A stretch of 64,000 nucleotides of DNA from Chitinophagales bacterium (GCA_015655125.1 JAATFP010000109.1:1798-65797), one strand, 5' to 3'. Counted from the first letter of the stretch, positions 1,701-62,776 are shown. Numbers and translations are program-made. Notes: generated by a model not told the origin, from the sequence alone.

Positions 1701-2948
1701 ATGAGCAAGATCGGTTTAATCATTGGCCGCGAATATTTCACGAGGGTTAAAAAGAAATCTTTCCTGATAACCACGATCCTTGTGCCTGCCGTCATCATCG
1801 CTTTTTATGCGGTGATTATCGCCATCGGAGCAAAAGGCAGCACAGAAAAACAAAAGATTGCGGTTGTAGATCAATCAGGATTGCTGGCGGATTCTAAAGC
1901 AGCCAACAATAAAGACTACACGATCATCAAAAATGAAAGTGAAACATCGTTTGTAAAAAAATACCAGGCGCAGGGATATGAGGCGTTCTTGTATATTCCG
2001 AAAGTAAATCTCGATACACCACATGGAATCGTTCTCCATAGCGAGTCTACCGTGAGCTTTGCAACCACCGAGGCAATCCGGAACATCATCGACCAAAATA
2101 TTGAAGCAAAGCGATTGTCGGCTTCCGGAATTGACCCTGCGAAATATCAACAGATCAAATCCGATGTAAAGATCGAAACTACGATCGATACCAAAGATGG
2201 CGGCAAGAAAGGAAACATATATGTAGCATACGGTGTGTCTTACGGTTGCGGAATCCTGATATATATGATGATGATCATTTACGGCACGCAGGTAATGCGC
2301 GGCGTAACGGAAGAAAAAACCAACCGCATTGCGGAGGTAGTGGTAAGTTCTGTAAAACCTTTTGAATTGATGATGGGCAAGATTATCGGCATCGGTGCAG
2401 TTGGCTTAACACAATTTGCTATCTGGATATTGCTGATATTCGGCATCTCGCAGGTCTTCCCGATGCTAGCGCCTGATACGACTATTTTATCGGGAATCAT
2501 GCAGGGACTCTCTTCTTTGCCCGTGGGTAGAATTATATTGTATTTCCTCGTTTATTTCGTAGGCGGCTATCTCACTTACGCGTCGTTATTTGCAGCGGTA
2601 GGCAGCGTTGTAAGTGAAGATCAGCAGGAAGCGCAACAATTGATGTTTCCCATCCTGATGCCGATCATCCTTGGCTTTGTGATCATGAGCAAGGCAGTGA
2701 ATGATCCCAATAGTTCGCTTGCTGTATTTGGCAGTTTGTTTCCGCTCACTTCACCGATCGTGATGATGGGAAGGATCACTTACAGTATTCCGGTATGGCA
2801 GGTTGCCACTTCTATGTTGCTTCTCGTTGCATGTTTTCTTTTATTAACATGGCTCACCGGAAAGATCTACCGCACGGGAATTTTAATGTATGGCAAAAAA
2901 CCAAGCTGGAAGGAAATGATGAAATGGGCATTTAGAAGCAATACATAA
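1701..2948 (+). CDS. ABC-2 type permease (NatB-like)
   Basis: N-terminal TM helix, large soluble loop, EEKTNRIAEVVVSSVKPFELMMGKIIG motif, C-terminal TM bundle; 17 nt after the ATPase gene. Confidence 0.9.
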   Translation: MSKIGLIIGREYFTRVKKKSFLITTILVPAVIIAFYAVIIAIGAKGSTEKQKIAVVDQSGLLADSKAANNKDYTIIKNESETSFVKKYQAQGYEAFLYIPKVNLDTPHGIVLHSESTVSFATTEAIRNIIDQNIEAKRLSASGIDPAKYQQIKSDVKIETTIDTKDGGKKGNIYVAYGVSYGCGILIYMMMIIYGTQVMRGVTEEKTNRIAEVVVSSVKPFELMMGKIIGIGAVGLTQFAIWILLIFGISQVFPMLAPDTTILSGIMQGLSSLPVGRIILYFLVYFVGGYLTYASLFAAVGSVVSEDQQEAQQLMFPILMPIILGFVIMSKAVNDPNSSLAVFGSLFPLTSPIVMMGRITYSIPVWQVATSMLLLVACFLLLTWLTGKIYRTGILMYGKKPSWKEMMKWAFRSNT

Positions 2949-2971
2949 TGAACAATTAATAGTTCCTCCTA

Positions 2972-3006
2972 ATTAAAATGCCTGCTACTTTAGCAGGCAT
3001 TTTAAT
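2972..3006. terminator. Bidirectional intrinsic terminator between convergent genes
   Basis: Perfect 16-bp stem attaaaatgcctgcta / tagcaggcattttaat, loop ctt. Confidence 0.8.
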
Positions 3007-3037
3007 GTATAAAAAATTATCAACTATTAATTATCCA

Positions 3038-4066
3038 TTAAGCTGTCGTACTCGTCACCGAAGCCGCCTCTTTTTCCAATTGGGCTTTTTCATCGCCAAA
3101 TACGGCATTATTAATTTCAGCATTCACATATTTGTACAGGATATCGCTGATCAGCAAAAAGATGCCGAGTACGCAGCCCATGATGAAACCAATGATCGCA
3201 TATATTGATCCCGAGGTTCTTTTTTCTTCAAAAGGCGGATCGGGCTTGTCCAGCGTTTCAATAATCGGTGTTACTTTTTGCCATCGCCAGAGGGCCTCTT
3301 CACGGTTATTGGCGGCGGCATCGCGCTGACGGACCACACGCCCCTTGTCGTTGATCAGGTTCTCTTTGGGTATGGTGTATTCGATCTTTTCTTCCGGAAC
3401 AAACAAGGTCGTGTTTGCCATATGAATTGCCTGCCTGTCGTATTCATCCAACACCTGTTGCAGCGAATCCAGTTTACGTACCGTAAAGTCGTAGTCGAAA
3501 CGCGCTTTCTTTACTTTCAGGTCTTTATAGAATTGAGATATCTTATCGATAAGCACGTAGCTGATCGGCGAAATGATGTCTTTGTCAGTGCTGCTGAAAG
3601 TGATTTCCAGGATGCCGTTCTTATTGATTTTAGCCGTCATCCCATTTTTGATGATCTCTGCACCTACGGCCCGAAGTACAGTATCCGTAAGCTTTTTTTT
3701 ATCGCCGTAAGTATTTTCAACCAATACTTCAGCAATGCGGCGGTTACCAAGTTGAGGTATCCTTTCCATCGCCACAGCTTCTCGGGTAGAGCGGCTTGTA
3801 GCGAGTTCTACGATATTGATAGAAGCTTCCTGGCTGAAGCTTTTGGGAGCATCATTGCCCGTAAGAGTGCTGATCAAGGTGCTGGTGGCGGAATTTTCAG
3901 TAGATGCCGTCAAAGGAAATACGGATGCTTTGGCAGTATAAATGACCGGCTTTTTTTTTGCATAGATATACATTGCTGCGCCGCCGACCAGGCCTGTAAC
4001 AAGCACCAGCAGCTTTAATTTTCCAAGCCTTCTGACTATTTTTCTTACAAGTTCGATCGATGTCAC
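3038..4066 (-). CDS. Polysaccharide co-polymerase / chain-length determinant-like protein (Wzz/GumC-like)
   Basis: Two TM segments flanking a periplasmic coiled-coil region, YTAKASVFP after TM1, Pro-containing motif before TM2; directly downstream of the SLBB exporter. GTG start. Confidence 0.6.
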   Translation of the reverse strand: MTSIELVRKIVRRLGKLKLLVLVTGLVGGAAMYIYAKKKPVIYTAKASVFPLTASTENSATSTLISTLTGNDAPKSFSQEASINIVELATSRSTREAVAMERIPQLGNRRIAEVLVENTYGDKKKLTDTVLRAVGAEIIKNGMTAKINKNGILEITFSSTDKDIISPISYVLIDKISQFYKDLKVKKARFDYDFTVRKLDSLQQVLDEYDRQAIHMANTTLFVPEEKIEYTIPKENLINDKGRVVRQRDAAANNREEALWRWQKVTPIIETLDKPDPPFEEKRTSGSIYAIIGFIMGCVLGIFLLISDILYKYVNAEINNAVFGDEKAQLEKEAASVTSTTA

Positions 4067-7483: not shown

Positions 7484-7605
7484 TTTAGAAGTTTAGCGAT
7501 CATAGTTAGTTGCAGCGTAAGGACCATACATTTATCAATTCAGGCAGACTTAAAGTAGATTTGAATTCCGAATGCAATCTAACCTCTAATCGCTAAACTT
7601 CTAAA
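7484..7605. repeat. 122-bp spacer bounded by perfect 17-bp inverted repeats
   Basis: tttagaagtttagcgat (7484-7500) and atcgctaaacttctaaa (7589-7605). Confidence 0.8.
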
Positions 7606-10649: not shown

Positions 10650-10697
10650 CAGCCGACAACGGACGACCGGCCACCGATGGAGTAAAATAATTTTAAG

Positions 10698-10723
10698 AGC
10701 CTGCGTTTTTCGCGGGCTTTTTT
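10698..10723 (+). terminator. Intrinsic terminator of glyA-DUF4293
   Basis: agcctgcg-ttttt-cgcgggct followed by a T run. Confidence 0.75.
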
Positions 10724-10834
10724 ATTATGTGTTAATGCTCCGGCCCGGAGGGTGTTCCAATTTAGCTGTTCGGTCGTCTCTTAGAAAATCTCAAAAGTTT
10801 TAACGCCCTTGCATTTTAATACAAAACATTTTCT

Positions 10835-23276: not shown

Positions 23277-23284
23277 CAAATGTA
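23277..23284 (-). promoter_or_regulatory. -7 element of purQ
   Basis: Minus strand TACATTTG, overlapping one end of the 53-bp palindrome. Confidence 0.6.
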
Positions 23285-23333
23285 CGATAAATGGGTTGAC
23301 ATCCCATTGGGATGTCAACCCATTTATCGTACA
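23281..23333. repeat. Perfect 53-bp palindrome (26-1-26)
   Basis: tgtacgataaatgggttgacatccca-t-tgggatgtcaacccatttatcgtaca. Confidence 0.95.
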
Positions 23334-26124: not shown

Positions 26125-26235
26125 GTTCAAGGTTCAAGGTAGAAGGTTCAAAGTTTTGCCAATTTAATACTCAATGCCCGATAGCTTTGTATCTGAATTG
26201 AATTAACTCCGAATTTTAATCCTTGAACCCTTAAC
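26125..26235. repeat. Heptamer array with inverted copy
   Basis: gttcaag gttcaag gtagaag gttcaaa (26125-26152) and tttaatc cttgaac ccttaac (26215-26235). Confidence 0.7.
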
Positions 26236-27978: not shown

Positions 27979-27993
27979 ATAAATAGTTTAAAA

Positions 27994-28078
27994 GTTAGTG
28001 TTTAGAGGCTAGCAGCCGAAGCCTGAAGTTTAGAGTCGGATACGGCTTTACTTAACCGCTGAACCCTAAACACGCAAC
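27994..28078. repeat. Heptamer-register array with inverted copy inside the ABC operon spacer
   Basis: tttagag at 28001 and 28029 (4x7 apart); gtgtttag (27998-28005) vs ctaaacac (28066-28073). Confidence 0.5.
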
Positions 28079-29744: not shown

Positions 29745-31892
29745 TTATTTTAAATAAAGGTCAAAATAGTCGGTCACTTTTTGATAAAGATGTGCGCGAT
29801 CTTTTCCAAGCACATTGTGTTCATGTCCGGGATAGATCATATAATCTACCTGAACACCCGCATCCACGGCGGCTTTCACAAAGTTAACAGAATGTTGTTG
29901 TAACACCACCGGATCCTGCAAACCGTGAATGAGGAGCAACTTATCTTTCAACTTTACTGCTTGACTGGTAAGATCCGTTGCGGCATAACCTTCCGGATTT
30001 TCCTGCGGCATGTCCATATATCTTTCGCCATACATAATTTCATACATGCGCCAATTCATCACCGGACCGCCGGCTACGCCCGCTTTAAAGATGCCGGGAT
30101 GATGCAGTAAAAAATCGGTCGTCATAAATCCGCCATAACTCCAGCCAAACAGCCCCATACGCTTGGTGTCGATGAAAGACTTCGCGTTTAAAAAAACAAT
30201 GGCCGTCATCATATCTTCCATTTGCGGTTCGCCGGTATGACGATGAATAACCTGTTCGAAAACCTTACCCCTGCTGGCACTGCCGCGGGTGTAGATTGTA
30301 AAGATAACGTACCCTCTTTCGGCCATGTATTGGAACCAATAGTCGCTGGCACCTCCGTTCCAGCTATTGAGGATCAATTGCGCGTGCGGACCGCCGTACC
30401 AATACACAACTGCCGGGTATTTTTTCGTGCTGTCAAAATTCACCGGTGTATACATGCGGCAATAAAGGTCGGTACCTTCCTTATTTTTGATAGTGAAGAT
30501 ATTCATGTTCCCTCTTGCGTAAGATGCCAGAGGATCGGAAGATTGCACTAGCAATTTTGTTTTGCCGGTTTTAACATCGATAAGCTGAACGGTCCTGGGA
30601 TCTGTTGTGGTGCTGTAATTATCGATCACGTAATTTCCATCGCTGCTGATGCTGGTATTATGAACTCCGCTTTCAGCCGTTATCCGCGTGGTCTTCAGCG
30701 ATCTTATATTCACAGAATAAAGATTTTTTGTGATCGGCGATTCCTGTCTGGAAACGTAAAAAATATTTTCGCCTTTTGCATCAAGGCCCTTTACTTCCAG
30801 CACCTCCCATTGACCGGCGGTAAGTTGGCGGACAAGTTTGCCAGATACATCATACAAATACAATTGGTTCCACCCATCACGGCGACTTTGCCAGATGAAT
30901 TTCGTGGGATCATTTTTTAAGAACAACACCGGCACCAGCGGCTCGGTATATTTTGCATCTGTTTCTTCAAACAACGTTTTTACAAAATCACCAGAAGTTG
31001 CATCATATTGATTCAACCACATATGATTTTGCCGACGATTCAATACCGCAATAAAAATATATTTATCATCCGGGCTCCAGGCAATGTTGGTGAGAAACTG
31101 CTCTTTCGGTTCGCCTGTTTTCAGCCAGGTTGTTTGTTCGGTAGTTGTGTTATATACGCCCACCGTCACATGATGACTGCTGTCGCCGGCCATCGGATAT
31201 TTCACATTGATCACTTTTGCGGGAATCGTGGTCCAGTCGATGATCGGGTAATTTGGCACCATCGTCTGATCCATGCGATAAAAGGCTAGCGACTTCCCAT
31301 TGTTGCTCCAGAAAGTCCCTTTGGTAATTCCAAACTCGCTCTGGTGAACGCTTGAGGCGTATACGATGTTTTCAGAACCATCGTCCGTCAATTTTTTTGC
31401 TGAGTCGTTTCTGGCAACATATAAATTAAAATTGTCGAGATAAGCCGTATAGCCGTCGCTGCTCTGATCGGCATTTTCTTTTGCGCCCAGCCATTTTTGG
31501 ACCACCACTTTATATTCATCAGAAGTGTTGCTGAAAGAATATTTCGTTCCTTTCAGGCTCACCACCCAATTATCGTTGTTGAATTGGATCGGCGGAAAAG
31601 CAGCCACGGTGTCGAGTGTTCCGGCACGCAAACGCTGATTGAATTGCGACAGTGTAAGAAAGGGTGTTTCTTCTTTGCTTTTAAAATTCCCTCGAACAAA
31701 AATATCCTTTCCATCTATCTTTTTAAGATAGATATAATCATCCGTGCCTTTGATAAATTGCAGCTGGCGAAGGTTTTCGGGTGCCAGCGTTGTTCGTGCA
31801 TTCACCATTGCATCCTGCATGGTGAGCATTTTTTGCTGCGCAAAGACAGCCATACCAATAAAAAGTGCGGGAAGCAACAAGAGCTTTTTCAT
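29745..31892 (-). CDS. Dipeptidyl-peptidase IV family (S9B)
   Basis: Signal peptide, DPPIV_N-type propeller, GWSYGG nucleophile, HGLQDPVV, YPGHEH. Start moved to ATG 31892. Confidence 0.93.
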   Translation of the reverse strand: MKKLLLLPALFIGMAVFAQQKMLTMQDAMVNARTTLAPENLRQLQFIKGTDDYIYLKKIDGKDIFVRGNFKSKEETPFLTLSQFNQRLRAGTLDTVAAFPPIQFNNDNWVVSLKGTKYSFSNTSDEYKVVVQKWLGAKENADQSSDGYTAYLDNFNLYVARNDSAKKLTDDGSENIVYASSVHQSEFGITKGTFWSNNGKSLAFYRMDQTMVPNYPIIDWTTIPAKVINVKYPMAGDSSHHVTVGVYNTTTEQTTWLKTGEPKEQFLTNIAWSPDDKYIFIAVLNRRQNHMWLNQYDATSGDFVKTLFEETDAKYTEPLVPVLFLKNDPTKFIWQSRRDGWNQLYLYDVSGKLVRQLTAGQWEVLEVKGLDAKGENIFYVSRQESPITKNLYSVNIRSLKTTRITAESGVHNTSISSDGNYVIDNYSTTTDPRTVQLIDVKTGKTKLLVQSSDPLASYARGNMNIFTIKNKEGTDLYCRMYTPVNFDSTKKYPAVVYWYGGPHAQLILNSWNGGASDYWFQYMAERGYVIFTIYTRGSASRGKVFEQVIHRHTGEPQMEDMMTAIVFLNAKSFIDTKRMGLFGWSYGGFMTTDFLLHHPGIFKAGVAGGPVMNWRMYEIMYGERYMDMPQENPEGYAATDLTSQAVKLKDKLLLIHGLQDPVVLQQHSVNFVKAAVDAGVQVDYMIYPGHEHNVLGKDRAHLYQKVTDYFDLYLK

Positions 31893-31905
31893 CGACAAAT
31901 TTTAA

Positions 31906-32010
31906 AATTGAATATTCAAGGTTGATGGTTGAAAGTTAAGCCTTCAACTTTAAATAGCCAACTAACTTAACCATTGCTAATCCTGAACATTCAACCTTGA
32001 ACATTCAATT
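31906..32010. repeat. Heptamer arrays forming 20-bp inverted ends
   Basis: aattgaatattcaaggttga (31906-31925) vs tcaaccttgaacattcaatt (31991-32010), 19/20 complementary. Confidence 0.85.
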
Positions 32011-32018
32011 TTGTATTG

Positions 32019-34400
32019 TCAATTCCTGAGCGGCTTTCCGGTTTTAAGAATGCTCTGAATTCGTTCCAGCGTTTTCTTTTCGGCCGTCAGGCTAAGGAAC
32101 GCCTCTCTTTCGAGGTCGAGCAGGTATTGTTCGCTTACCAATGTTTGTTCGCTCAGATCGCCGCCACACATCACATACGCAAGTTTCTTTGCTACTGTTA
32201 CATCGTGATCGGTTGCATATTTTCCGCGGTGCATTCCATTGATCCCGGCATACATGGCGCCAAGCCCGGACCGGCCCAGCACCTTGATATCAGTACGTTG
32301 AACGGGCATCGTATACCCATCGTCGTACATATTGATCACTGCTTTTTTTGCTTCCGCAATGCGGCGGCCGATATTGATACTCACTTCGTCCAATCCTTTC
32401 CTATAGATACCCATATCGAAAGCTTCAAAAGCCGATGTCGCCACTTTTGCGGTAGCAATATTCAGGAAGCGGTTTTGTAATGTGATGGTTTCCGGTTCAC
32501 CGGGATGCATCTCATCTGCGGCGCGCAAAACAAATTCTTTTGTACCGCCGCCGCCGGGAATAACGCCGATGCCCACTTCCACCAGGCCCGTGTAAGTTTC
32601 GGCAGCAGCAATTACTTTATCCGCATGAAGACAGATTTCACAACCGCCACCCAGCGCCAGTCCGTGCGGTGCAAGCACCACCGGAATAGAAGAATAGCGA
32701 ACGCGCATCATCGTGTTTTGAAACATACGGATCGCCATGTCGATCTCATCATAATCCTGTTCGATCGCCAGCATGAAGATCATACCCACATTGGCACCCG
32801 CGCTGAAGTTGGCACCTTCATTGGCGATCACCAATCCTTTGTATTTATCTTCTGAAATCGAGATTGCTTTCTGTATTCCTTCCAACACTTCACCGCCAAT
32901 GCTGTTCATTTTAGTGTACCATTCTAATCCCACTACATCATCGCCCAGGTGATATGCGCGGCAGGCGCTGTTTTTCCAGATGGTTTCATTCGCAAAATTC
33001 TTCATCACCAGGAAGGCCTCACCACCCGGCAACGGCTTGTATTGACCGGAACTGACATCATAGGCCAAGCGCTTTCCATTCTCCACTTTATAAAAAGTCT
33101 TGTTTCCTTTTGCAAGCATTTCTTCCACCCATGCCGCCACGGCGAAACCTGCTCCCTTCATGGCTTCTACGGTTTTGGCAACGCCCAAAACGTCCCAACT
33201 TTCAAATGCCCCGATCTCCCAGCCGAAGCCGGCCATCATACCATCGTCTACGCGATACAATTCATTGCTGATCTCCGGAATGCGGTGACTGATATAAGAA
33301 AATAACGCATAATGAAACTGCCGGTAAAATTCACCTGCCTTGTCGGTACCGGCCACCAGCGCTTTCAGCCTGCTATTGAGGTCCTCTATTGGCTTCGCAG
33401 TTTCAAGCGTCGCAAACTTTGGTTTTGACCTCGGTTCGTATTCCAATGTCTGCAGATTCAGCACCTGGATATCTTTTTCGCCATCGGCGCTTTTTACTTT
33501 TTTAAAGAAACCCTGGCCGGTCTTGTCGCCGAGCCAGTTATTTTCGATCATCTTACTGAGCCAGGAAGGAATATTGAAAATGTCCTTTGCTTCATCATCC
33601 GGACAATTTTCATATACACCTTTCGCCACTTTCACCAGTGTATCGATGCCTACAACATCTGCCGTTCGAAAGGTGGCAGATTTTGGACGTCCAATAACAG
33701 GACCGGTTAATGCATCGATCTCATCGATACCCAATTGTAGTTTTTCCATTGCGTTCATAATGGCCATCATGCCAAAAACGCCCACACGATTTGCTATAAA
33801 TGCCGGCGTATCTTTCGCAAGAACAGTTGTTTTGCCAAGATACAGATCGCCATAATTCATCAGGAAATCCACTACTTCCGGATCGGTAAACGGCGTGGGG
33901 ATAATTTCCAGTAAACGCAGATACCTAGGCGGATTAAAAAAATGCGTTCCGCAAAAATGTTTCTTAAAATCTTCGCTTCTTCCTTCGGCCATCATGTGTA
34001 TCGGAATGCCCGAAGTATTGGAAGTGATAAGCGTACCGGGTTTGCGGAATTTTTCCACTTCTGTAAATACGGATTGTTTTATATCCAGCCTTTCCACCAC
34101 TACTTCAATGATCCAGTCTGCGCCGGCGACATCTTTCATATTGTCGGTAAAATTGCCGGTAGTGATGCGTTTCAACACATCTTTCGTGTAAAGTGGTGAA
34201 GGATTTGACTTCGCCGCAGCCGCAAGCGCATCGTTTACGATCTTATTACGCTCCGCAGGTTTTGCGTCGGCCGCAAGATCCTTGGGCGCGATATCCAGCA
34301 ACAATACCTGTAAACCAATGCCGGCAAAATGTGCGGCGATACGGCTCCCCATTACTCCACTTCCTAGAACGGCAACTTTTTTTATAGTTCTTTTTGACAT
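32019..34400 (-). CDS. fadN: 3-hydroxyacyl-CoA dehydrogenase / enoyl-CoA hydratase (FadN-type domain order)
   Basis: VLGSGVMG, SNTSGIP, HFFNPPRY, C-terminal crotonase domain (FSAGAN, ALGGGCE, GLVEVG). Confidence 0.9.
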   Translation of the reverse strand: MSKRTIKKVAVLGSGVMGSRIAAHFAGIGLQVLLLDIAPKDLAADAKPAERNKIVNDALAAAAKSNPSPLYTKDVLKRITTGNFTDNMKDVAGADWIIEVVVERLDIKQSVFTEVEKFRKPGTLITSNTSGIPIHMMAEGRSEDFKKHFCGTHFFNPPRYLRLLEIIPTPFTDPEVVDFLMNYGDLYLGKTTVLAKDTPAFIANRVGVFGMMAIMNAMEKLQLGIDEIDALTGPVIGRPKSATFRTADVVGIDTLVKVAKGVYENCPDDEAKDIFNIPSWLSKMIENNWLGDKTGQGFFKKVKSADGEKDIQVLNLQTLEYEPRSKPKFATLETAKPIEDLNSRLKALVAGTDKAGEFYRQFHYALFSYISHRIPEISNELYRVDDGMMAGFGWEIGAFESWDVLGVAKTVEAMKGAGFAVAAWVEEMLAKGNKTFYKVENGKRLAYDVSSGQYKPLPGGEAFLVMKNFANETIWKNSACRAYHLGDDVVGLEWYTKMNSIGGEVLEGIQKAISISEDKYKGLVIANEGANFSAGANVGMIFMLAIEQDYDEIDMAIRMFQNTMMRVRYSSIPVVLAPHGLALGGGCEICLHADKVIAAAETYTGLVEVGIGVIPGGGGTKEFVLRAADEMHPGEPETITLQNRFLNIATAKVATSAFEAFDMGIYRKGLDEVSINIGRRIAEAKKAVINMYDDGYTMPVQRTDIKVLGRSGLGAMYAGINGMHRGKYATDHDVTVAKKLAYVMCGGDLSEQTLVSEQYLLDLEREAFLSLTAEKKTLERIQSILKTGKPLRN

Positions 34401-43151: not shown

Positions 43152-43213
43152 TAGTTTGGGGAATTAATAAGTAGTAATTAACAATTCCGTTTACACACGT
43201 TGCCCGGCAAACC

Positions 43214-43325
43214 GTCTTCGGCAAGCTCAGACTGACAGTACTTATCATGTTGAGTTTGCCAAAAAACATAGGTATGCAGGTTTTATCTCATCTACCGCGT
43301 CCTGTCATGTTGAGCTTGCCGAAAC
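43214..43325. repeat. Cluster of three REP-like copies (one inverted, two direct, one of them degenerate)
   Basis: gtcttcggcaagctcagactgac (43214-43236); tatcatgttgagtttgcc (from 43243); gtcatgttgagcttgccgaaac (43304-43325). Confidence 0.75.
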
Positions 43326-43413
43326 ATAAATAGAATACGGATTTTCATTCAGGTTTATTTTTAGCACAGCACGTAAATTATTAGTTGTTCATTGTTGGTT
43401 ATTACCCGATTTT

Positions 43414-54959: not shown

Positions 54960-55026
54960 TTTGGGTTGTCAACCTATCCGGTTGACCTCCCAACCGGTTG
55001 TCAACCGGATAGGTTGACAACCCAAA
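54960..55026. repeat. 27-bp inverted repeat built from four GGTTGWCAACC units at 16-bp period
   Basis: Arms 54960-54986 and 55000-55026; units start at 54964, 54980, 54996, 55012. Confidence 0.9.
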
Positions 55027-57524: not shown

Positions 57525-57702
57525 ATCGCAGATTTTTTTCTTCCGCTGCGCGAAAATTGATTAAGGGATTACGCAGATTGGCCGCTGCGCGGGTCAGCCT
57601 CCTCAAGACACATAAAATTTGCCGAAGGCAAAAATTGCGAAGCAATAAAATCTGCGTAATCCCTTAATCAATTCGCCGAAGGCGAAAACATAAATCTGCG
57701 AT
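57525..57702. repeat. Nested inverted-repeat mosaic (BIME-like) between convergent genes
   Basis: Outer 11-bp IR (57525-57535 / 57692-57702), inner perfect 25-bp IR (57555-57579 / 57649-57673), small GAAG/GAA-loop hairpins. Confidence 0.85.
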
Positions 57703-59047: not shown

Positions 59048-59138
59048 TTTTTACCGCAGAGAAATAAGGCTGCAGCGTTTACGCAGCGTACTCAGATCTC
59101 TGCGTAAACTCCATTTTCTCTTTTCTCTGCGGTAAAAA
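59048..59138. repeat. Nested inverted repeat, CGCAGAG / CTCTGCG type
   Basis: 17-bp outer IR (59048-59064 / 59122-59138); 10-bp inner IR (59077-59086 / 59100-59109). Confidence 0.85.
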
Positions 59139-61331: not shown

Positions 61332-61398
61332 TGCGAATTACGGGGTTGCGCGTTATTTATTGTTTTCGATCCGTAATTCGCAATTTGTAATTAAAATT
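61332..61398. repeat. Heptamer array with 12-bp inverted copy between ftsA and ftsZ
   Basis: tgcgaattacgg (61332-61343) / ccgtaattcgca (61371-61382); ccgtaat tcgcaat ttgtaat taaaatt. Confidence 0.75.
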
Positions 61399-62776
61399 TT
61401 GCGTCTTCTTCTTCCTTGAACATTTCGATCAGATTGTTCTTCATCGCATCCATAAAACCTTTGATGGTTTTTTTCTTCGGCGTCGGAACAGCAGGCTGAT
61501 GGCTGGTTTCAGGTGCTGCAAAATCTTCTGTTATCACTTCTTCTTCCGCCGCTACTTTTACATCTTTACCCGCAACCTTGATGAAATTCTGCTCGAACGT
61601 TTTGTTCTTATTTTCATAATCATTGTATCCTTTCAATATCAGGCCGATACAAGTACTGTACATTGGTTTCGCCAGCTCTTCGATATGGCCGCCGCTCAAA
61701 TGCTCGTTCGGAAAACCGATCCGCGCATTCAGGCCCGTTACATATTCGGTAAGCTGTAAAAGGTGCTTAAGCTGAGATCCGCCACCAGTAAGGATCACAC
61801 CGCCATTCAACATCCTGTTATCAAGGCCTACCTGTTTCAGATGATAGCTCACAAAATCCATGATCTCGCTCATGCGCGCCTGGATGATGCTCGCAAGATT
61901 CTTTACAGAAATTTCTTTCGGTGCCATGCCGCGCAAACCAGGAATGGTAATGAACGCATTTGATTTCGCTTCGTCAGCAAGTGCGCTACCGAATTGAATT
62001 TTCATTTGCTCGGCCTGCGTTTTCAAAACACCCAAACCGGTTTTGATATCATTTGTAATGTTTTCACCACCGAACGGAATAACCGCCGTATGTTTTAAAA
62101 TACCTTCATAAAAAACCGCAAGATCGGTTGTACCACCACCGATATCAACAATGGCCACACCCGCTTCCAGATCCTGATCGCACATTACAGCCGCAGCAGA
62201 GGCCAATGGTTGCAATACGAGATCTTTTGTTTTTAACCCGGCTTTATCAACGCTGCGGTTGATATTTCGGATCGCATTTTTATCGCCGGTAATGATATGA
62301 AAGTTTGCGCCTACTTTCACACCGCTGTAGCCGATCGGGTTTGGAATATTCTGAAAATTATCTACAGTAAATTCCTGCGGAATAACATCGATGATCTGAT
62401 CACCTGCCGGAATGTAAGTGCGGTATTGATCAGCGATTAGTTTGTCGATCTCTTCCTGACGGATCTCTTCCTCATTTTGCTGACGCACAATATCGCCGCG
62501 CGTTTGCAGACTTTTTATATGATGACCGGCGATACCAACATATACCTCGCCGATCTCCAGGTTAGGGTTCGATGCATAGCAATTCTCCAAAGCTGTTTGA
62601 ATGGCTTTAATGGTCTGGTCGATATTCAGCACCATGCCATGTTGCACACCATTGCTATTGGCTCTGCCGAAGCCGAGTATCTCCAATTTGCCGAATTCAT
62701 TCTTGCGTCCGGCGATGGCAGCAATTTTTGTTGTACCAATGTCTAAACCGACAATTACTGGTTGTTCGTGATTCAT
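61391..62776 (-). CDS. ftsA: Cell division protein FtsA
   Basis: VGLDIGTTKI, VDIGGGTTD, ILTGGGS. Confidence 0.98.
   Translation of the reverse strand: MNHEQPVIVGLDIGTTKIAAIAGRKNEFGKLEILGFGRANSNGVQHGMVLNIDQTIKAIQTALENCYASNPNLEIGEVYVGIAGHHIKSLQTRGDIVRQQNEEEIRQEEIDKLIADQYRTYIPAGDQIIDVIPQEFTVDNFQNIPNPIGYSGVKVGANFHIITGDKNAIRNINRSVDKAGLKTKDLVLQPLASAAAVMCDQDLEAGVAIVDIGGGTTDLAVFYEGILKHTAVIPFGGENITNDIKTGLGVLKTQAEQMKIQFGSALADEAKSNAFITIPGLRGMAPKEISVKNLASIIQARMSEIMDFVSYHLKQVGLDNRMLNGGVILTGGGSQLKHLLQLTEYVTGLNARIGFPNEHLSGGHIEELAKPMYSTCIGLILKGYNDYENKNKTFEQNFIKVAGKDVKVAAEEEVITEDFAAPETSHQPAVPTPKKKTIKGFMDAMKNNLIEMFKEEEDAKF

Follow-up and report, generated by a model that had tools for sequence, protein, structure and literature searches.

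Gene-less inverted heptad arrays in a Bacteroidota genome as probable satellites of PF05635 (IVP) cassettes

An inverted array of tandem heptamers between two protein-coding genes, together with the other listed loci of the same layout, was analyzed in a 64,000-nucleotide stretch (here called the window; positions 1798-65797 of contig C89) of a 3.75-Mb, 116-contig MAG whose source is a wood-decay metagenome assembly. These loci are quite probably ORF-less satellites of IVP cassettes and intergenic counterparts of the IVS of 23S rRNA, because the arms of gene-less elements match, in kind and in heptamer, the arrays that bracket the PF05635 genes resident in the same genome. Such a reading joins two old puzzles, namely intergenic heptanucleotide repeats, which to our knowledge have been without known function or generating mechanism since about 1990, and the S23p/IVP proteins of rRNA IVS, for which we know of no function since about 1993; both are long-unexplained features of bacterial genomes. 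An annotation rule follows for the intergenic spacers concerned, which make up about 9% of those in this genome. A full-text literature search found no paper tying heptad arrays in general to PF05635, the nearest being the Coxiella IVS paper, with heptamers beside an S23p ORF (PMC4990558), and the TAACTGA paper (PMC4679880); what is new here is the gene-less population, its match to resident cassettes, and the co-occurrence test. The host, a Bacteroidota MAG, is probably a member of Chitinophagaceae, judging solely from one accessory gene, for IVP, whose closest homologue sits in a Ferruginibacter MAG. The features discussed are collected in Table 1.

Table 1. Heptad-armed elements, neighbouring genes and IVP genes (positions without a contig prefix are those of the window)
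Feature	Location	Strand	Description
Focal element, left arm	31904..31925		AAAATTGAATATTCAAGGTTGA; GTTCAAG/GTTGAAn-class heptads; reaches 31930 at 89% identity
Focal element, spacer	31926..31990		65 nt; left part keeps heptad register: TTGATGG TTGAAAG TTAAGCC TTCAACT
Focal element, right arm	31991..32012		TCAACCTTGAACATTCAATTTT; reverse complement of left arm, 1 mismatch
FadB-like gene	32019-34400	minus	its stop codon borders the focal element on one side
DPP-IV/S9 peptidase gene	29745-31892	minus	its start codon borders the focal element on the other side
TAATAAT/AGTAATA-class element	2946..3040		arms 2946-2964 and 3022-3040, 19 nt, 2 mismatches
TTTAGAG-class element	7484..7605		arms 7484-7505 and 7584-7605, 22 nt, 91%
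Degenerate GACGACC-class element	10650..10778		exact complementary core 8 nt (10662-10669 / 10771-10778)
GTTCAAG-class element, divergent spacer	26125..26235		exact complementary core 9 nt (26131-26139 / 26221-26229)
Degenerate TTTAGAG-class element	27994..28078		fills the 100-nt ABC ATPase/permease junction (27979-28078)
Eighth locus, absent from the earlier list	43160..43412		degenerate TAATAAT-type arms ~43160-43188 and 43376-43412
Small AATTACG-class hairpin	61332..61398		12-nt perfect arms 61332-61343 / 61371-61382, then TTTGTAATTAAAATT
IVP cassette	C24:23305-23695		GTTCAAG...CTTGAAC
IVP cassette	C36:75027-75381		GTGAATA...TATTCAC
IVP cassette	C95:16832-17192		ATGATCT...AGATCAT
IVP pseudogene cassette	C95:112377-112692		TTTAGAG...CTCTAAA
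Fifth IVP gene	C52		flanked by a GACGACC array and, opposite, by a contig end

Anatomy of the elements and extent of the heptad population

The inverted heptad array described in the first-pass annotation was confirmed as an element of about 110 bases, in which two 22-nt arms match at 21 of 22 positions around the 65-nt spacer (27 nt at 89% in an extended version), and lag 7 is the best lag, with self-identities of 0.64 and 0.54 in the two arms and 0.1-0.4 at other lags. Its left side, read in sevens, is TTGAATA TTCAAGG TTGATGG TTGAAAG TTAAGCC TTCAACT, a small inner hairpin occupies about 31928-31948 of the spacer, and no homology was found between this spacer and those of other copies. The right arm stops 6 nt short of the stop codon (32019-32021) of the fadB-like gene. 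The heptamer class of the element, GTTCAAG, is also that of the IVP cassette on C24.

A predominance of period 7 was evident by every measure used. With TRF at a score of at least 50, there were 41, 75 and 23 repeats of periods 7, 14 and 21 genome-wide, whereas period 6 was absent and periods 8, 9 and 10 each occurred once. A strict lag-match scan (at least 17 of 20 matches) returned, at lag 7, 139 segments between genes and 19 within them, compared with 0 and 6 at lag 6 and 8 and 6 at lag 8 (about 0 in shuffled sequence), and a relaxed scan returned 373 arrays at lag 7 compared with 18, 59, 53 and 67 at lags 5, 6, 8 and 9. In the 5.8 kb of intergenic DNA of the window, 23 loose lag-7 segments were detected versus 3-5 at lags 5, 6, 8 and 9. 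Intergenic tandem 7-nt units in excess of neighbouring periods, a feature of STRR/LSSR-type repeats, are thus present here. The first-pass annotation had made its proposal depend on an enrichment of period 7 over periods 6 and 8, and this enrichment is decisive, because period 7 exceeds the neighbouring periods by a wide margin. At the strict threshold the population amounts to about 150 loci genome-wide, at least 77 of which are paired hairpins, and gene-less elements outnumber gene-bearing ones by about 25:1.

Heptamer classes include GTTCAAG, ATGATCT, TAATAAT, GTGAATG, GACGACC, TTTAGAG, AATTAAG and others. When blastn-short was run on about 150 long-spacer inverted repeats, families of 19, 17, 16, 9, 8, 8 and fewer members were obtained, some of them not heptad-periodic. 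The earlier statement that the loci share no sequence and would not be grouped by blastn was therefore wrong, since the elements cluster into heptamer families; within the window, the loci at 26125 and 31906, for example, share the GTTCAAG type. Arrays of the same class were also observed to cluster in successive intergenic spacers (C34:37335-39889, C95:13835-17249, C103:32321-37399 and C114:45432-49503), which suggests local spread, or exchange among neighbouring elements.

The inverted arrangement, proposed from loci of the window, holds genome-wide: 95 of the 169 strict arrays had an inverted partner within 200 nt (local score of at least 12) versus 12 with a direct partner, while about 45% had no detectable partner. 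Median arm and spacer lengths were 25 nt and 52 nt in 77 paired elements, so that long-stem terminal inverted repeats, a feature of IVS, are found in the population as well as in the focal element. Without exception the arms are arranged as X...rc(X), and on each strand the G-rich array comes first, at the 5' side (left arm G>C in 58 elements vs 8). As this fixed polarity makes either strand read alike, sense and antisense folds are equally stable (19 vs 19 in a comparison of folding energy in 39 paired elements from tandem spacers), and because the palindrome reads alike on both strands, this split is evidence neither for nor against selection at the RNA level. The arrays are imperfect mixtures of unit variants, the order of which is mirrored between the two arms of one element and differs from copy to copy.

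Spacers compared among copies were unrelated apart from short AT-rich motifs. A core common to all families was ruled out, the rare AT-rich AAAATTTTTAGAGATTTTAAAA being confined to a few spacers of two families: it or its complement occurs in ATGATCT- and GACGACC-class spacers at C21:1063, C24:26927, C36:78453, C45:48839, C82:1532 and C86:4148. The motif is rare genome-wide, and most of its exact copies adjoin heptad arrays. GC-rich terminator hairpins with flanking A/T runs were observed within spacers at 2972-3006 and about 10700-10733 in the window and at C86:4148-4332, C82:1532-1709 and C22:14072-14208, where a terminator that belongs to the locus seems to be enclosed by the arms. Such spacers are hard to explain by the mere insertion of a ready-made unit; they fit the formation of arms round pre-existing sequence as well as they fit insertion.

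Among the seven loci of the window listed in the first-pass annotation, lag 7 was the best lag in all seven, but the inverted layout with long arms was found in only three (2946, 7484 and 31906). In the remaining four (10650, 26125, 27994 and 61332), exact complementarity is limited to cores of 8-12 nt, and these loci look like decayed members. The arms of the 2946 element contain the stop codons of both convergent genes, and its spacer holds a perfect 16-bp terminator-like hairpin. The 7484 element, whose first two units have a period of 8, occupies the entire spacer of two minus-strand genes. At 10650, the array CAGCCGA CAACGGA CGACCGG CCACCGA begins directly 3' of a stop codon, and the terminator hairpin in its spacer is an ordinary one; the left array at 26125 has four heptads (three near-perfect GTTCAAG and one variant, GTAGAAG); and the TTTGTAATTAAAATT stretch at 61332 includes the stop codon of the gene at 61391-62776. 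The eighth locus, at 43160, encloses a copy of a different palindromic repeat family (43217-43323).

Several other palindromic repeats were observed nearby. The family enclosed at 43160, consisting of CTGTCAGNCTGAGCTTGTCGAAGG and its complement, was also found at C18:4815-4944, C63:20816-20891, C68:2878-2980 and C116:1686-1764, and is nested in a heptad-armed spacer twice, namely within the AATTAAG arms at C18 and the degenerate TAATAAT arms of the window. A separate family that is not heptad-periodic, with 25-bp perfect arms AATTGATTAAGGGATTACGCAGATT, about 70-120 nt between the arms and often CGCAGAT-containing sub-repeats, is present at 57555-57673 of the window and at 18 other loci (e.g., C103:6666-6809), and its 19 members make it the largest inverted-repeat family of the genome. 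In addition, GGGTTGACA / TGTCAACCC occur in both of two perfect palindromes at 54960-55026 (27 bp, with GGTTGWCAACC units at a 16-bp period) and 23281-23333 (26 bp), which may be candidate sites of one DNA-binding protein. A two-member inverted-repeat family (59048-59138 of the window and C49:92006-92078) has the form TTTTTACCGCAGAGAAA...TTTCTCTGCGGTAAAAA round a second hairpin, GTTTACGCAG...CTGCGTAAAC.

With respect to genes, as counted from crude ORF calls, 77 elements lie in tandem spacers (background 1020), 36 in divergent (388) and 15 in convergent ones (333); they are at or above expectation in divergent spacers and, if anything, depleted in convergent ones. They occupy short spacers and come as near to start codons as to stop codons, and the closeness to a stop codon that had been taken as a shared feature of the loci is thus no preference. 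Neither confinement to 3' ends (36 divergent vs 15 convergent) nor strand-specific stability, as in intrinsic terminators, was observed. Stops in all three frames, a further feature claimed for the arrays, are indeed present in 116 of 139, but since 7 mod 3 = 1 this is largely arithmetic, and tiled random heptamers give 88.5 +- 5.7.

Relation of gene-less arrays to IVP cassettes

Six genes of the PF05635 family (23S_rRNA_IVP/S23p, regarded as Avd-like; PMC10053308) were identified in the genome, none of them in the window. Inverted heptad arrays, of classes also found in gene-less elements, flank four of the six on both sides, and the C24 protein matches the Xanthomonas S23p pentamer 2GSC. Among X...rc(X) array pairs 130-4000 nt apart, IVP genes were the only recurrent cargo, the remaining pairs being arms of neighbouring elements. 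The candidate partner of the arrays is the cargo gene family itself and not a nuclease or recombinase, as had been suggested.

The association extends well beyond this genome. IVP genes were present in 26 of the 31 genomes searched (30 relatives from 13 genera of the order plus this genome), and at about 24 of 30 retrieved IVP loci of relatives the arms on either side were inverted and gave lag 7 as the best lag, each locus having a heptamer of its own. A survey of named genomes covered one IVP subfamily at 75 loci with both flanks available, from Chitinophagales, Cytophagales, Flavobacteriales and Bacteroidales as well as single Balneolales, Acidobacteria and Paceibacterota MAGs. In this subfamily an inverted repeat (score of at least 14) was found at 60 of the 75 loci and a direct repeat at 11; lag 7 was best in 47 of the 60 inverted-flanked loci, the left arm had G>C in 50 versus 4, and the heptamers had a common GTTnnnn or ATTnnnn core. 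The link between heptad arrays and four-helix-bundle IVP cargo, which had been proposed earlier, is thus supported here, in relatives and in named genomes. A best period of 8 or 9 was observed in inverted arrays at some IVP genes (units such as GATTTAAA and GGTTCAAG), at loci L233, L238, L243, L264, L271 and L303 of other Bacteroidota genomes and, in the related genome G010, at L032; seven is thus not a strict ruler.

The gene-less arrays are tied to the cassettes by further tests. In 81% of 155 such arrays, the consensus heptamer differs by no more than one mismatch from at least one of the six resident cassette heptamers, compared with a mean of 33% and a maximum of 65% when six cassette heptamers were drawn from other genomes (p <= 0.002), and exact matches amount to 28% versus 1.4% in that null. 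Arms of the same class as those of a cassette, another feature of IVS, are thus found in these arrays, the focal element included. The co-occurrence test used 26-158 kb sampled from each of 19 relatives. In five IVP-less relatives, two of them congeners, 2 lag-7 arrays were detected in 539 kb, which equals the background of lags 6 and 8, whereas 14 IVP-positive relatives had 75 in 1173 kb (binomial p = 2e-10). The heptad excess correlated with IVP genes (Spearman 0.48, p = 0.03; n = 20 including this genome, with no phylogenetic correction), two IVP-positive genomes (G028 and G005) having no heptad excess in the sampled DNA. Similarly, IVP protein identity correlated with heptamer similarity (Mantel r = 0.185, p = 0.005).

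A six-frame HMM search found no IVP remnants in gene-less elements, so that the suggested reading as emptied cassettes, taken literally, is not supported; one extra weak IVP fragment was located at C115:4127-4268. A PF05635 ORF between the repeats, as seen for four of the six IVP genes elsewhere, is absent from the contig of the window, and given the lack of both ORF and remnants the window loci are filed as ORF-less relatives and not as cassettes. Since homology among spacers, target-site duplications and IVP remnants are all lacking, describing these elements as cassette derivatives refers to the identity of their arms and not to a traceable descent.

Gene-less arrays of the AATTACG class were observed at 61332-61398 of the window, C59:56370-56467 and C45:58964-61342, and no resident IVP cassette has that heptamer; AATTACG-armed cassettes are present in the relatives G019 and G028. 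These arrays may be orphans of a lost cassette.

Gain of the elements and weighing of explanations

Comparison of orthologous junctions shows a gain of elements between genes whose junctions in relatives are plain, which supports this part of the earlier interpretation. The fadB/dppIV junction is 126 nt long here, 89 nt with a plain terminator in the congener G006 and 70 nt in a metagenome relative (L050), the best metagenome relatives of a flanking gene being at most 71% identical, and heptads upstream of dppIV were found in none of 20 regions from other relatives. Likewise, the ABC ATPase/permease junction spans 100 nt here; it measures 2-67 nt in 11 relatives, a twelfth has overlapping genes, and the element is absent from all 12. 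In the only other DNA run that contains the organism, which is shallow, the contigs end at the element, and the organism was not found in the metatranscriptomes of the source study.

The part played by the IVP protein and by the stems can be pictured as follows. The IVP protein would recognise its cognate heptad array as DNA or RNA, and may be required in trans for creating, copying or maintaining arrays. By analogy with rRNA IVS stems, the 17-35-bp stems of well-paired elements, transcribed from either strand, could serve as RNase III-type substrates (RNase III, rnc, is encoded in the genome) or as insulators between cistrons. A period of 7 would place stop codons in all three frames and might thereby make insertion at gene ends tolerable.

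Three other explanations, each of which fails specific tests, were weighed against the satellite reading. Ordinary heptanucleotide SSRs of the STRR/LSSR kind could arise by replication slippage and become inverted by template switching, with IVP genes merely sitting in, or captured by, hairpin-prone spacers. Heptanucleotides are the commonest long SSR class in many prokaryotes, for which polymerase slippage was suggested (Mrazek 2007, as far as summarised in PMC4679880), and heptamer copy number differs among Coxiella strains (PMC4990558); locus-specific spacers and the lack of target-site duplications and gene remnants would also agree with such an origin. It is nevertheless unlikely, as slippage alone does not explain why arrays are missing from IVP-less congeners, why most gene-less arrays use the heptamers of resident cassettes, why the heptamer core tracks the protein subfamily across orders, why polarity is fixed, or why the partner arm mirrors an imperfect mixture of unit variants. 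Very unlikely, in our view, are host regulatory hairpins (terminators, or structures for mRNA stabilisation or processing) that evolved in place and came to resemble cassette arms by convergence. The hairpins are stable (mean about -39 kcal/mol), many lie directly 3' of stop codons, and the focal arms open with an A-run and close with a T-run, but in divergent (promoter-promoter) spacers they are at least as frequent as expected and in convergent ones, if anything, depleted, stability has no sense-strand bias, the same junctions in relatives have short plain terminators or short gaps, and several elements enclose a separate ordinary terminator. No Rfam or tRNA match was found in the window.

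Scarcely any credence can be given to conventional MITEs or REPINs moved by a transposase (DDE or RAYT/IS200-type) encoded elsewhere in the genome. A size of about 100 nt, terminal inverted repeats, high copy number, sequence families and the clustering of same-family arrays in neighbouring spacers would be expected of them; yet direct repeats of at least 5 nt flank 2.6% of the elements compared with 2.5% of shuffled partners, the interior is not conserved among copies, and no cargo other than the IVP gene recurs between X...rc(X) arrays. No transposase for the elements was found, and no RAYT (Y1 transposase, PF01797) was detected in the genome, the lone Y1_Tnp match being sub-threshold (21.3 bits vs a cut-off of 23). 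Two other candidates appear unlikely: invertons, as the spacers, at about 50 nt, would be short for inversion by an invertase and the adjacent genes are housekeeping genes in both orientations, and integron attC sites, as the cassette-array logic of integrons is absent.

Beyond the satellite reading, a broader proposal is put forward only tentatively and is more doubtful. PF05635 pentamers might be sequence-specific heptad binders that create, copy or maintain their own arrays without a transposase, and together with gene-less satellites they might form one very widespread minimal class of selfish elements, which could also explain 23S IVS, as copies inserted into rRNA, together with some or all of the STRR/TAACTGA-type repeats of cyanobacteria, Beggiatoaceae and Bacteroidota.

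Comparison with known systems

Like MITEs and REPINs, the elements are non-coding palindromes of about 100 nt that occur in many copies and are related to a few gene-bearing partners. They differ in having no target-site duplication, no conserved interior and no transposase or RAYT; the spacers are unrelated, with no interior from an autonomous transposase element shared among copies, and the partner gene encodes not a transposase but a four-helix-bundle protein with no known catalytic activity. The Avd protein of diversity-generating retroelements, a nucleic-acid-binding pentamer of the four-helix-bundle type, is homologous (PMC10053308), but neither a reverse transcriptase nor a template/variable repeat pair was found in this genome.

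A likeness is also seen to heptameric repeats, although STRR are hosted by cyanobacteria and the host here belongs to Bacteroidota, with GTTCAAG, ATGATCT, TAATAAT, GTGAATG, GACGACC and other units, which differ from the canonical STRR units. STRR, LSSR and TAACTGA repeats likewise consist of tandem heptamers between genes, often directly next to start or stop codons, with several heptamer types per genome and a sporadic occurrence among relatives (PMC4679880). In Beggiatoaceae, Cyanobacteria and five Bacteroidetes, MacGregor (2015) reported direct repeats of TAACTGA and further heptamers, which are missing from close relatives; one set among 170 was inverted, and no protein partner of the PF05635 family was proposed (PMC4679880). 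Those repeats are described as direct and have been linked to no protein family, whereas more than half of the arrays here form inverted pairs, which track PF05635 cassettes.

The elements also invite comparison with the IVS of 23S rRNA. ORF-less IVS of enterobacteria are about 100 nt in size, similar to the elements here, and we know of no report of heptad periodicity in them. Those of Salmonella, to the extent that Burgin 1990 is cited in PMC4990558, resemble the present elements as gene-less stem-loops within a transcribed region, and differ in their rRNA location. ORF-bearing IVS (Coxiella burnetii, Leptospira and Xanthomonas; PMC4990558) sit in helix 25 or 45 of 23S rRNA, whereas the elements here lie between protein-coding genes; moreover, the window copies are ORF-less, their arms are wholly heptad arrays of several classes, and there are more than 100 copies per genome. 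The IVS of Coxiella burnetii is a 428-nt selfish element with an S23p ORF; its terminal inverted repeats form a stem of 28 bp that RNase III cleaves, and it has GACAGAT heptamers in 2-4 tandem copies, a number that varies among strains (PMC4990558). Thus the ORF-bearing IVS and the elements described here have in common a terminal inverted-repeat stem of 20-30 bp, the S23p/PF05635 gene family and terminal tandem heptamers, of variable copy number in Coxiella, and both are regarded as selfish elements.
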